The position numbers and the translations under genes were made by a program. Source: an uncultured delta proteobacterium (GTDB lineage: Bacteria; Desulfobacterota; Syntrophorhabdia; Syntrophorhabdales; WCHB1-27). From it: a stretch of DNA of 64,000 nt. The stretch covers positions 290,108 to 354,107 of the forward strand of contig CAWFMJ010000015.1 in assembly GCA_963816715.1 (NCBI GenBank), written 5' to 3'. This document shows, one piece after another, positions 12,001 through 13,700 of the stretch. The notes beneath the pieces were generated by a model. It was not told the DNA's origin. It worked only from the letters and a program-made list of their open reading frames with translations, and did no database searches. The stretch's first letter is position 1; every line of letters begins with the position of its first letter.

Positions 12001-13128
12001 ACCCTGACGGCGGCAATGCCCGACACAGATGTGACCTACTACCAGAACAACAATATCGTCAACCCTGCGACGTTGATCGAAACGAGGAACGACGGGACGA
12101 ATGCCGGCGTCGACCACATCTACGCGGGGAACGGCAACAACATCATCCTTGCTTCCGCCGGCGACACGGTGAGCGCAGGCAACGGCAACAACACCATCAT
12201 AGCCGGCTACGGTCAGATTACCAAAACGTCCGCCGGCGTTGTCACGAGCATCAAGAGCGCAAGCCCCGCAGAGAACGTGGGCGACACGATCAACGTGGGC
12301 AATGGCAACAACACCATCATCGGCGCAGCCGGCAACAACACGATCACCGCAGAGAACGGCAATAATATCATCATCGGCGACGACGGCACGGTACAGTACG
12401 ACTCCACGGGCGCCGTCTCTTCGATCACGCCGACCGATGTGTCTGTCGGGGGCAACAACACGATCACGGCGGGTGACGGCGCCAACGTCATCATCGGCGG
12501 GTCGGGGACGAACACGATCACCACGGGCAACGGCAACAGCACCATATTCGGCAACAACGGAACGGTCGCCTATCAATCCGCCGGCGTGTTCTCTTCGGCG
12601 ACCGCGATCGACCCGACCATCGGGGCCAGCAACACGATCGTCGCTGGAAACGGCGCCAACGTCATCTTCGGCGGGACCGGATCTGACGTGATTAAGGCGG
12701 GCAACGGCGCCAACGTCATCATCGGCGACGACGGCACGGTGCAGTACGACTCCACGGGCGCCGTCTCTTCAATTACGACCACCGATGTGACCGTCGGAGG
12801 GAACAACAGTGTCACCGCAGGCAACGGCGCCAACATCATTTTCGGCGGCTTTGGAACGAATGCCATTATCGCAGGAGACGGCAACAACATCATCTTCGGT
12901 CACAATGGAACCGTAGCCTATCAGTCCGCAGGCGTGCTCTCTTCAGTGACCACGACCAACCCGACTATCGGCGGCAACGACACGATCACTGCAGGCAACG
13001 GCAACGACACGATCTTCGGCGGCGACGGATCGGATACGATCACTGCAGGCAACGGCAACAACATCATCTTTGGCGACGACGGTCAAATTCAGTACTTCGC
13101 TTCGGGCGCCCGAGCCTCATTCAGATGA
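1..13128 (+). CDS. Giant repetitive secreted adhesin-like protein with RTX-type (GGxGxDxUx-like) calcium-binding repeats. The 5' end lies outside the window, and this is the portion before a frameshift.
   Basis: Frame 1 is open from nt 1 (no stop before the GTG at 145 that the ORF track uses), so the gene starts upstream. It is 4,327+ aa with almost no Cys and is very rich in T/G/S/N/D/A. It has long internal tandem modules, and aa ~3900-4327 carry dozens of 'AGNGNNIIFG / GGxGTNxIxxG' nonapeptide-like repeats typical of type-1-secreted RTX beta-roll proteins. Confidence 0.85.
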   Translation, partial: AQSTAGSGGLIAASGAASSVEDTSTTQAYIENATSAANKSTFDTASLTVSASHTAQFDSQANSTEASLVGGSGASGTNTIDTTVDAFIGDYTNVATDNLNVTATSTTLKNMSMPNAWSTWDIQAGSGGAIAGSAAQSITNISNDTEATIGDSVTIDVVGSLSDPGAFVVSAYNDVEASDWVDLDAGGAIAYAGATSEILVDNNNPNNLPTALASLGNNDVISTVGDLDLEAYTKGILDVEPKAHTYGLAAAASIDAEALMHENDAVNVGTGTNVLAMGNLNLLAGANHTGTENYFNITSHGDELNASAIPINELQSHGEVVQNNTVYIGAGSDLQTAQDANLTAETMGTDEVTAYGEGKDWMSDLAADINSLGTPIPATMQGGTQTVTTTGTVTVNGTVEVGVDGQKTLVINQDGTIAQQTGGITFTTSTESEANDLMMEYEYWTSMVTVYGAGSTAGQAYQQQADYVAAEMTALGLSATNGSTTAYLTSYAVPYITVDAIDAQEGTINVIGTSLAVNGTLDASGNVSVDIENNSPDFLRIEGIDISSSAGGQVLFNYNAITSLQGLTNVSGSGTLSVAGSAGATTPTITIKSNFGASDEIGNYAHCQTPNVELSGDISNMLGSVTIYSAGSVIENANTDAGTISITAGGSYVQNYSNALSSIGGGDPAAQAVWTQVLEDAIADWNGNFLYGMIGVLSSSNDTNAQFQADLAAALAASAPTSSSIVAGENVFIAAEYLNIDGTVQSGQPQQTVTILNNAATQTYISNANSVYAAEQAGSTSYANRLINQDGLTTSDGIHFKLATQSGDTITAYYNAQTQQIDLAPVTVQGGYMQLYGDIASTGNGQLNVLDGYGTVSITNDTSYALVTNTIETGQGAAGKLIITDTAYTADVNGQDLPLTTEYTRVNGEVTTETYYLSSTGAKLDDTTVSSGSVGRTAVYTPLSGQRYYWTEGEDFMTTTTDTYSASAWLGISAFYSPSNIVSSDTVVTKGLHLESGAYIATDSSDTSAYDFSMQQFQTSAPTTVDSPVQESSTWYGKTTYTSTQTTYDGYEDIYTSSIKADSPINIDFIGSDSGSVTISSPNSSVIVDGAIQNATGTTSISAGGQVEQGSATASVGGANITLAAGSGIGATGALDVNLTKSSGVLNATSTTGDIDIDDPNGSLTIDTISTSQTDGDITITAAENIFASSTSSLITGGAITLTATDGEIGSFGTNGTYDDPASDALPIDIDTGTDATHDMLTATAFGNIYIIQPTGNLLVQDITTNGDVRVEVPNGNIANSNTDVVVDTRTWNELLSMYDQMEATGSAAQTSINDTILAYNAGQTQDYLTYWTYRNQQSNDYVGGLTDGQTYYVVQVDSTHIGLATTAGGTPVSIMASTDPGDGAAEQRLYTGSGTYVTFDDSSSTINNTNSTIAMSGITGGTLTAGEEVTFERYVPYSDSQTVTLSAAQQTAYTTYYTQQGTAQGLSGSALTSYVNNAIQTLENQETQEYHTLNQTWGSVGDFYDPTFSYSSGYSVAKFAGYSVANFDSSSVTGNVINVGANAFTTGEAVTYEESGAAAGATNGNLVVGNTYYVIAGVGGNANDISLADSAADATAGNAITLGTITGSANYVYGTSPSVTGNVINVGANAFTTGEAVTYEESGAAAGATNGNLVVGNTYYVIAGVGGNANDISLADSAADATAGNAITLGTITGSANYLSGGPSSDALHNAFGASAVAGNTINVGANAYTTGEEVVYENGQAAGATNGNLVVGQTYYVIKDSTDTISLADSATDASEGNALAIGSITGSGNFFSDGAVLAQRAAWSQAQLQESFNANILAPSTATSTQYATETDITARNVYLKASNAPSNTSAGNIGVSEGTLTINLPLSSDNLSTAQEVALAAAEPEDITFYTGSNGTGSVINLNSLPSGETVAEALAKAGSLTVNEIKPVDVVAAGTLIFTGTGNVNVGSTGNMNLESVTAGNEARLTAGGNLVDARTDSSAVVEAGGNVVLEGGNGYIGTASNPFIIALSTGSLTASAAEDIYITETSYEGTTYSMNVAHVFSDNDVYLTTQGSILDYYGVNDQPEWEIGAQSADLQAGGGIGASNNYVGMELTDGTITANAKGSIYLSQYSGDMDVKLVDSATGDVGLSAAGNLLDASGGVAAAVIGKNVTLQANSGSVNVASNGLAVAFDIQASGNLTASSFLDIYVTQMSGNLSLGTVATTQGTAYISAPTGEILNGLSSGDNITSGATYLFASGNIGTQANPITSATPSNAASAELQANSTTGGVYIVNKGALDITDVSGGGDAIEAGGSVDITTHCVMTLTGQVTVGADGLGNLTLTEAGGTAGDFIHVEQGTDLTVSGNVTFIAEQDVLIDAGSTISAGGSVTIEGDQETAALVNATAANILVAGTITGSSLTIQGGAHDDIISLTNVQPGVPTTIETGTGNDTINIGSLATMTLNTGDVLGTIQAPLVIDGQGGTDTLNLDDSGDTANTSGDLTYNTLTGLGMADGITYSNIAALNISLGSGNDTFTIQSTDSGTTKLSTGAGTNTVNVQTISGATTIDDGSATDTINVGNVSSQTGQIGALLTVKGDVSDILNVTDAGDATGRTGTLTGSTITGLGMTGSIAYAGVQTLNISLGSGSDTFNVQSTDSATTNLNTGLGANEVDVHDASNTTNQINGLLTVTGNPGSDILNVTDAGDATGRTGTLTGSTITGLGMTGSIAYAGIETLNVSLGSGNDTFTVQSTDVNVTNLHTGAGSNTVNVQTISGATTIYDQSTTDTINVGSLSNQTGQIGALLTVKGDASDTLNVTDSGDSANGVSGDLTSSTITGLDMATGIDYSGVATLNIHLGTGNNAFAIDSTSAATNNLYTGVGTESNTVNVHEIDNATNIYDGSKSDTIYVSDTSNTTSHIEALLTVNGAGGANNGDTLNVTDTSDGGNIWGNLTSSAITGNFFGTGGSVDYSGVATLNISLGSGNDTFTIQSTNQSTTSNLSAGAGNNTIYVQTIASTTLVQTGNGNNAIDVYDGSNTTDQVSGSLTIAAGTGNNTLNVTDTGDATGRSGNLTASTLTGLGMAEGITYTGITTLNISLPLTAQNNFTISNTDTTTTNLTGGNAGDTITIYQVSGLTNVQDGSGDDTITKLGYADSATLNIDGGLGNNTVNVSYAGGSSNDLINVTDAKEAPTPITLSSAGSGSSQELTPVVANQTFNAASTANGGSVNIANSTIEIANADTLYYTGETVRYLNDGTNASSVGGLNNGQVYYVIVTGQNTIQLALTLENALKATPVSIAFTGYGTGTNSLVVPSSTPTTFNGATAVSLANNTITIDSHGFLTGEEVTYEDGGGTAIGGLVNGQTYYVIVVDANTIQLSTTAPSAGTTLNIYGTNQTENLLLRATSNPTSSGPNGTGFVAALNGGTDYEMVTYTSSISNLIVNTGNGNDTVTLDDNRIETLINAGTGTDTFQIGQIFQSARNTSSNVLIDAFTTTLTTRGYLSNGVSYDTTITGGVGTNAGADTFTVYRNLATLDLVGGTGNDTFIVQSFVTEASVLSRVNTGSASNNIQYVTNADLEIDGGAGINTLEIIGTEFDDDFVITDQAIYGVGRTIDFQNIQNLIIDGGAGDNTFYILSTPASCNVELWGGLGNSTFIIAGSSAVLPAGFNAVGANDVSVNLATLQQQPTDNLSCIEGNLTIQGGPSPGSVVGTNAPTMLPGETNIPSQDGTVQAFSGTGVAGATTDTMTVETADLQTKANTLGFTTLSQFAGQTIEIVSGSGVGRFWLITGVTQSASDPALTTLTLQDPAELSAQWTTLPTSGSVYAINGLSQSYFVNTASLVNVMSVYDDQASTSTGSLVGKGSQGMELTGLDMGGTFDYSDMDTVQFYLGTNVTNFTVSGSLETGTPDSSGGYGQTLTSITTVSESATPVTDTFNIDLDDSIAGLFALNMEGGADNYVYAMNSTLPLVIFGGEGSNTIYGGQGGDTIFGHEGLIDYTDDAGDVITRLGLDFSEQTNNTLNRGQTLTAAMPDTDVTYYQNNNIVNPATLIETRNDGTNAGVDHIYAGNGNNIILASAGDTVSAGNGNNTIIAGYGQITKTSAGVVTSIKSASPAENVGDTINVGNGNNTIIGAAGNNTITAENGNNIIIGDDGTVQYDSTGAVSSITPTDVSVGGNNTITAGDGANVIIGGSGTNTITTGNGNSTIFGNNGTVAYQSAGVFSSATAIDPTIGASNTIVAGNGANVIFGGTGSDVIKAGNGANVIIGDDGTVQYDSTGAVSSITTTDVTVGGNNSVTAGNGANIIFGGFGTNAIIAGDGNNIIFGHNGTVAYQSAGVLSSVTTTNPTIGGNDTITAGNGNDTIFGGDGSDTITAGNGNNIIFGDDGQIQYFASGARASFR
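4594..5376 (+). repeat. Intragenic tandem repeat. Two near-perfect ~261-nt (87-aa) copies lie at about 4594-4854 and 4855-5115, with identical nucleotides over ~243 nt. A third diverged copy sits at about 5130-5376.
   Basis: 'VTGNVINVGANAFTTGEAVTYEESGAAAGATNGNLVVGNTYYVIAGVGGNANDISLADSAADATAGNAITLGTITGSANY' occurs twice with identical DNA. The third copy is 'TINVGANAYTTGEEVVYENGQAAGATNGNLVVGQTYYVIKDSTDTISLADSATDASEGNALAIGSITGSGNF'. Related 'GQTYYVI..NTIQL' motifs recur at about 4030, 9720 and 10020. Confidence 0.9.
7380..9250 (+). repeat. Array of about six tandem ~96-aa modules inside the giant gene, read with near-identical DNA between some copies (unit 'LNVTDxGDATGRTGTLTGSTITGLGMTGSIAYAGxxTLNISLGSGNDTFTxQSTDxxTTNLxTG').
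   Basis: Long identical nucleotide strings recur, for example 'tccgacatcctcaacgtgaccgacgcgggcgacgcgacgggccgcacgggaaccctcaccggttccacgatcaccggcctcggcatgacggggagcatagcttacgccgg' at ~7741 and ~8039. Protein motifs 'TLNISLGSGNDTFTIQSTD' and 'QTGQIGALLTVKGD' are repeated. Confidence 0.85.

Positions 13129-13700: not shown

Follow-up and report, generated by a model that had tools for sequence, protein, structure and literature searches.

The stretch of DNA analysed here, called the window throughout, comprises 64,000 nucleotides (nt) of contig CAWFMJ010000015.1 in the assembly GCA_963816715.1 of an uncultured delta proteobacterium, and about 23% of it is occupied by a giant gene for an RTX-type repeat protein in which the reading frame changes close to the 3′ end. 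Reading of the frames and open reading frames (ORFs) showed frame 1 to be free of stop codons from base 1 of the window up to a TGA at 13126-13128; the gene extends past the left window edge, and its 5′ part counts at least 4375 codons. Frame 1 ends in ...GNGNNIIFGDDGQIQYFASGARASFR followed directly by this stop, and frame 3, which reads ...GRPSLIQMTDLQIAANNTITVGNGNNIIFGG... and ...GRPSLIQMTDLQIAANNTITVGNGNNIIFGGSG..., stays open until 14516. Relative to frame 1, frame 3 is shifted by -1. The features on which the argument depends are as follows.

1-13128, forward strand: 5′ part of the giant repeat-protein gene (frame 1 stop-free, PF00353)
12282-13082, forward strand: tandem RTX-repeat array, period 174/348 nt with about 70-75% matches (Tandem Repeats Finder), adjoining the break on its upstream side
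13104-13111, no strand assigned: palindrome GGGCGCCC of 8 bp, which holds the lesion and contains GGCGCC, with one G run and one C run of no more than 3 each
13105-13112, forward strand: frameshift site with one base missing (protein alignments; DNA alignment against loci L009 and L018)
13125-13128, forward strand: ATGA start/stop overlap, formed by the first ATG of frame 3 (13125-13127) and the frame 1 TGA (13126-13128)
13125-14516, forward strand: 3′ part of the giant gene, a separate ORF of 463 amino acids (P0001) that encodes the last of the RTX repeats together with a conserved C-terminal domain, a Q/P-rich linker and a conserved tail (...REGFKRLKEEQRRRRFLPWFGGKV...)

One gene in two reading frames

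A sequence-only reading of this DNA had described a stop in frame 1 followed by a continuation in frame 3 in repeat register, and inspection of both frames confirmed this description. RTX nonapeptide repeats (PF00353) were recognized on both sides of the break, with E=8.9e-29 for the last 1042 residues of frame 1 and E=1.1e-18 for the 463-residue ORF, and the repeat pattern carries on beyond the break in frame 3. The GGxGxD nonapeptide repeats of the C-terminal part are RTX-type and gave weak matches to the beta-rolls of serralysin and CyaA. Moreover, when one base is restored at the break, the repeat unit from G to NN becomes 17 residues long, equal to the preceding units. Judged by these features of the sequence, the ORFs at 1-13128 and 13125-14516 are one gene interrupted by a frameshift.

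Position of the lesion

The tail of frame 1 was joined to frame 3, and this junction-spanning reconstruction was used as the query in a protein search. The best uninterrupted relative was P0002, encoded on a JGI metagenome contig (locus L002), with 53% identity over 98% of the query (E=1e-170); its ORF meets no stop before the contig ends and represents the tail of a longer gene. Because the reconstruction aligns with the uninterrupted P0002 from end to end, the match in register goes far beyond chance. At the junction itself, the single-frame GNNTILGHDGYIHFFSSGTASLIEATDLQLAASN of P0002 lies opposite GNNIIFGDDGQIQYFASG and SLIQMTDLQIAANN of the window, on the two sides of the break.

The frame 1 codons around the break are gct tcg ggc gcc cga gcc tca ttc aga tga. 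Since the conserved residues SG are encoded in frame 1 (13102-13107) and the conserved residues SL in frame 3 (13113-13118), the switch of frame must lie within 13105-13112. This segment, ggcgcccg, has eight bases in the window versus nine in relatives, where three codons encode G-x-A/P. A DNA alignment against L009 and L018 showed a gap of exactly 1 nt in the window, and in the protein alignment the number of residues from SG to SL equals that of the relatives once one base is restored. The indel had earlier been placed at 13117-13121; the alignments move it 5-15 nt upstream. Restoration of a fourth G would give S-G-R-P-S-L and that of a fourth C S-G-A-P-S-L, both of which suit the family, so the putative intact version of the segment is either GGGGCGCCCG or GGCGCCCCG, and a 4-to-3 contraction of the G or the C run would yield the lesion.

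The gene in relatives

Nine relatives are in frame at this site and share the pattern '...FFSSG-x-[A/P]-SL[I/V]E-x-TD...'. For eight of them this was established by protein alignment (L002/P0002, L005, L006, L007, L009 and the ENA proteins P0003, P0005 and P0121) and for L018 by DNA alignment. Loci L005-L009 come from metagenome-assembled genomes (MAGs) that carry the label 'uncultured delta proteobacterium' and isolate names following the pattern MFDxxxxx.bin. In L009 an unbroken ORF of 3922 codons reaches the C-terminus, and the equivalent region is spanned by ORFs of 2166 codons in L006 and 1350 codons in L005. Together with the 1-nt gap in the DNA alignment, these relatives bear out the earlier proposal that a single-base indel divides one gene and detaches its C-terminal module. 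The same proposal had held that a stop-containing spacer between the two segments in related genomes would speak against it, and the relatives instead read through in frame.

The break is not conserved, as none of the relatives examined has it. A recurrent break seemed to be present in L018, where the gene call begins with 'MASLVESTD'; this candidate was rejected, as the DNA there is identical to that of the unbroken L009 and the break in L018 lies elsewhere. The junction-spanning protein search returned nothing above 65% identity besides the ORF itself, a search with the unique upstream region for a sibling strain gave nothing close, and the exact DNA pattern with 7-10 nt at the site had no match in JGI metagenome contigs. 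In an exact-protein look-up of the 463-residue ORF, the source contig and a single Logan run were the only matches.

Giant genes, and even SecA-like genes, are split into many ORFs at non-conserved positions in L003, L004, L005, L008 and L018, by a rough count of frame breaks from ORF lists, and one of the breaks in L008 adjoins a GATC site. These split genes indicate that frame breaks are common in this data source.

Agreement of two assemblies at the site

Logan contigs are built per sequencing run, from 31-mers seen at least twice and for any sequencing platform. A Logan contig of run ERR11523660 (L001/L019, 14,467 nt) covers 11229-25697 of the window and represents a differently made consensus, because this k-mer assembly (k=31) was built separately from the assembly of the window. 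At the frameshift site the two are identical, with the same 8-nt sequence. Over the 13.3 kb compared they differ only in two single bases that the window has in excess, a C at 19284 and a G at 23737, and a second Logan contig (L020) matches 56178-61492 perfectly. Thus, in 18.6 kb compared in total (L001 and L020), there are two differences, both at CTAG and neither near the frameshift site. CTAG is rare in this DNA, with 3 sites in the 13.3 kb versus about 48 expected from base composition and 11 copies in the 64 kb. The assemblies differ at 2 of the 4 internal CTAG sites compared, and the end of the Logan contig falls inside a further CTAG (25696-25699).

The extra C at 19284 cuts a 57-residue N-terminus from a SecA-like protein. 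In the Logan version the gene encodes a SecA paralogue of 662 amino acids, the first 57 residues of which are conserved in four relatives of 662-663 amino acids. On this comparison of sequences, there is hardly any doubt that the extra C is a consensus error of the window assembly, by which the SecA-like gene was falsely split. The extra G at 23737 changes TCTAGA to TCTGAGA and is intergenic. These data suggest that the reads are unreliable at CTAG, perhaps owing to methylation of the motif. The window therefore carries motif-linked consensus errors, and the frameshift site is outside that pattern.

Because the assemblies agree, a random error of the consensus is excluded; a systematic error of basecalling would escape this comparison. 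The choice between a sequencing or assembly error and a true mutation, which the sequence-only reading had left standing, is narrowed by this result: a random assembly error is unlikely, given that a separate k-mer assembly agrees.

Deletion or systematic read error

Cumulatively, the reading that we favour, with moderate confidence, is that one base has truly been lost from the DNA of the population, leaving a truncated or split gene. We infer a deletion in the DNA rather than a systematic error of the reads, and the consequences for the protein are inferred along with it. A giant gene for a surface protein that can probably be dispensed with offers mutation a large target that tolerates change, which counts for a real deletion.

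The alternative with the most bearing on this conclusion is a systematic Nanopore basecalling or consensus error, according to which the true genome has nine bases and an intact giant gene, and most reads drop a base in the GC-rich palindrome GGGCGCCC, perhaps because of a base modification, so that the deletion would pass into the polished assembly and the k-mer assembly alike. We regard it as rather doubtful, although several observations speak for it and, by the same token, against a deletion in the DNA. The long-read MAGs of the Microflora Danica project, which include the relatives of the window, were assembled with Flye and polished with one round of Medaka at a minimum coverage of 8, and a Nanopore-only assembly is very probably the source of the window as well. 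Judging from the trouble of the Logan assembly at CTAG, run ERR11523660 is probably the same long-read data. At least one false frameshift is demonstrable in the window, that of the SecA-like gene at 19284, the related Nanopore-only MAGs are full of frame breaks in the giant gene family, and our searches found no sibling strain or short-read data confirming the allele. In addition, both differences between window and Logan contig are 1-nt insertions at the rare CTAG, the motif in which the Logan contig also ends, and GGCGCC and RGCGCY are classic target palindromes of restriction-modification systems.

Against such an error, the site is not a CTAG and has no long homopolymer. GGCGCC occurs 35 times in 1-14516, and the other 34 copies lie in unbroken reading frame. 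GGGCGCCC has eight further copies in the window, and G/C runs longer than those of the lesion are present too (27 runs of at least six); at none of these was a frame break seen. Elsewhere in the window there are also copies of the 9-mers that would represent the intact site (GGGGCGCCC in three copies, GGGCGCCCC in one). Furthermore, the assemblies agree at the lesion and disagree at the demonstrably bad sites. Pfam domain coverage of the genes scanned in the rest of the window revealed no other broken genes.

Predicted consequences of a deletion

If the deletion is real, one base would have been lost inside ggcgcccg at 13105-13112, most simply by contraction of a short G or C run from four to three. 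The giant RTX-repeat gene would thereby be pushed into the -1 frame, and translation would end seven codons past the lesion at the premature TGA. The predicted product is a body of at least 4375 amino acids that lacks the last 463, namely the terminal RTX repeats, the conserved C-terminal domain (...DIMIGRFAYIV...FWFGDDPLA...), the Q/P-rich linker and the tail (...REGFKKLKEEQRRRRFLPWFGG...), which is itself conserved in every relative aligned. RTX proteins carry their export signal at the C-terminal end. Because export of RTX proteins depends on this end, the truncated body would, by analogy, most likely not be exported, and the gene would be a recent pseudogene or a loss-of-function allele. 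Low-level synthesis of the 463-residue remainder could still occur if ribosomes reinitiate at the overlapping ATG after termination. The earlier suggestion that the C-terminal part is a secretion or anchor region is plausible by comparison with RTX proteins, in view of its RTX repeats and highly conserved tail.

The overlap of start and stop raises the question of whether the split itself might be tolerated or functional, with the body and the 463-residue module made as two proteins, the latter through termination-reinitiation at the ATGA and perhaps exported alone by the apparatus encoded downstream. The position of the ATG across the stop is consistent with this; so is the Met at this repeat position, which is found only in the window (relatives have S or A), and the 463-residue ORF retains its RTX repeats and conserved tail intact. 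On the other hand, no relative aligned has the arrangement, the ATG is not preceded by a visible Shine-Dalgarno-like sequence, and the body would still be without its C-terminal end. We further removed one base in silico at each codon of the giant gene: an ATGA overlap results from 7.7% of such random 1-nt deletions, and in 27% a stop is reached by the seventh codon. The overlap is frequent because Met-Thr ('ATGAC') is common in this Thr-rich protein, and we rejected it as a sign of selection. Similar 4-nt overlaps of ORFs in L008 were also set aside, being plain frame breaks in a noisy assembly. A tolerated or functional split is thus quite improbable. That a real deletion has been put to use, either through ATGA coupling of the 463-residue module to the body or through a low rate of -1 slippage that sets the amount of full-length protein, is in our judgement highly improbable; if true, the lineage would have altered the way in which the giant protein is handed over to the SecA-paralogue, membrane-fusion and M50-type apparatus encoded downstream.

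A full-length protein might also be restored in a fraction of molecules or cells by programmed recoding (-1 ribosomal frameshifting or transcriptional slippage) or by slipped-strand phase variation, the last of which the sequence-only reading had raised. The shift is indeed -1 and in exact repeat register, and a P-site tRNA-Gly on GGC could conceivably re-pair with GGG one base back. However, no X XXY YYZ heptamer is present in frame 1 at the site, as had been stated before; the accompanying statement that the site has no homopolymer is only roughly true, given the runs of three G and three C in GGGCGCCC. The 121 nt from the site have a minimum free energy of -34.6 kcal/mol versus a shuffle mean of -29.1 and fold no better than shuffled sequences (z = -1.64, 12 of 200 shuffles as good). 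Tandem Repeats Finder reported no short-period tract at the indel, where the only runs are GGG and CCC, and there is no A/T run suited to transcriptional slippage at the site. As heptamer, tract and significant structure are missing and the frameshift is absent in every relative examined, neither programmed frameshifting nor phase variation finds support, and we consider restoration by any of these routes scarcely credible.

With the genuine deletion that we favour, a very large surface or secreted protein would probably no longer be exported in this population, which is common and unremarkable variation. Either way, the event is an ordinary frameshift of a known kind, be it a recent inactivating deletion or a long-read artefact. 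Its relevance lies mainly in annotation: the ORFs at 1-13128 and 13125-14516 should be treated as one interrupted gene, and the window assembly handled as one that bears motif-linked indel errors. The gene family and the conserved operon downstream of it are of more interest than the frameshift.

C-terminal tail and downstream operon

The tail encoded at 14370-14516 (...EGFVAFGAAAA...REGFK[KR]LKEEQRRRRFLPWFGG[EK]V) is near-invariant in relatives that are about 55-60% identical overall. Such conservation far exceeds that of a typical type I secretion signal, and on this ground the tail may be a dedicated recognition tag. The giant gene is followed by a conserved operon, whose members were assigned by domain scan.

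14647-21858, forward strand: conserved downstream operon, in an order shared with L002, L018 and partly L004
14647-15012, forward strand: DUF3467 gene
15100-16950, forward strand: gene for a GAF and membrane-fusion protein
16947-19100, forward strand: gene for an HExxH/M50-like metalloprotease fused to a membrane-fusion domain
19112-21101, forward strand: gene for a short SecA paralogue, the frame of which is disrupted in the window by the additional C at 19284
21115-21858, forward strand: gene for a small membrane-fusion protein

The gene order was taken from the annotated tables of L002 and L018, with which it is the same, and of L004, with which it agrees in part; in L005-L009 the giant gene is followed by ORFs of matching sizes. 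The best NCBIfam match of the HExxH/M50-like protease was the daptide biosynthesis metalloprotease, below the cut-off. Membrane-fusion-type genes are present, and the seven downstream ORFs scanned (15100-23615) include neither an ABC transporter nor TolC. The operon may encode an unusual export apparatus for giant proteins. A literature search for DUF3467 together with SecA found nothing.

Directly after the operon, the gene at 22257-23615 resembles members of a family of anti-phage dCTP deaminases (NF041025, E=1.9e-58, which falls short of the curated cut-off); its N-terminal part is a kinase-like P-loop region, and it also gave matches to zinc ribbons. Within the giant gene, a 261-nt unit is present in tandem at 4592-5101 with 99% identity, which gives two adjacent copies of an 87-residue segment (SVTGNVINVGANAFTTGEAVTYEE...) and reflects either a very recent duplication or an effect of assembly.

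Comparison with known systems

Pseudogenised genes of giant repeat adhesins and RTX proteins offer a close parallel to the favoured deletion: a single-base indel has hit a very long, repetitive surface-protein gene, a stop follows a few codons on, and both fragments keep full homology to intact orthologues. The case differs in that the lesion is known from one probably Nanopore-only genome and a k-mer assembly of probably the same reads. Indel errors of Nanopore-only, Medaka-polished MAGs are likewise comparable, as the window errs at CTAG and relatives from the same project have many split genes; unlike such errors, the lesion is at neither a CTAG nor a long homopolymer, its local sequence is in frame elsewhere, and two consensus methods agree on it. 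With programmed -1 ribosomal frameshifting, as in dnaX and the transposases of IS elements, the gene shares the -1 relation of two overlapping frames of one functional unit, but it has no slippery heptamer, stimulatory structure or conservation in relatives.

As to the protein itself, it resembles a type I-secreted RTX adhesin by analogy with LapA, SiiE and CyaA, with which it shares a giant repeat body, C-terminal GGxGxD repeats, a tail and adjoining membrane-fusion (HlyD-type) genes. In contrast to those systems, the seven ORFs scanned in the window are without an ABC transporter or TolC, and the operon instead combines three membrane-fusion-type proteins with a fusion of an HExxH/M50-like intramembrane protease, a short SecA paralogue and DUF3467; the C-terminal tail also sets the protein apart, being strongly conserved compared with typical type I signals.

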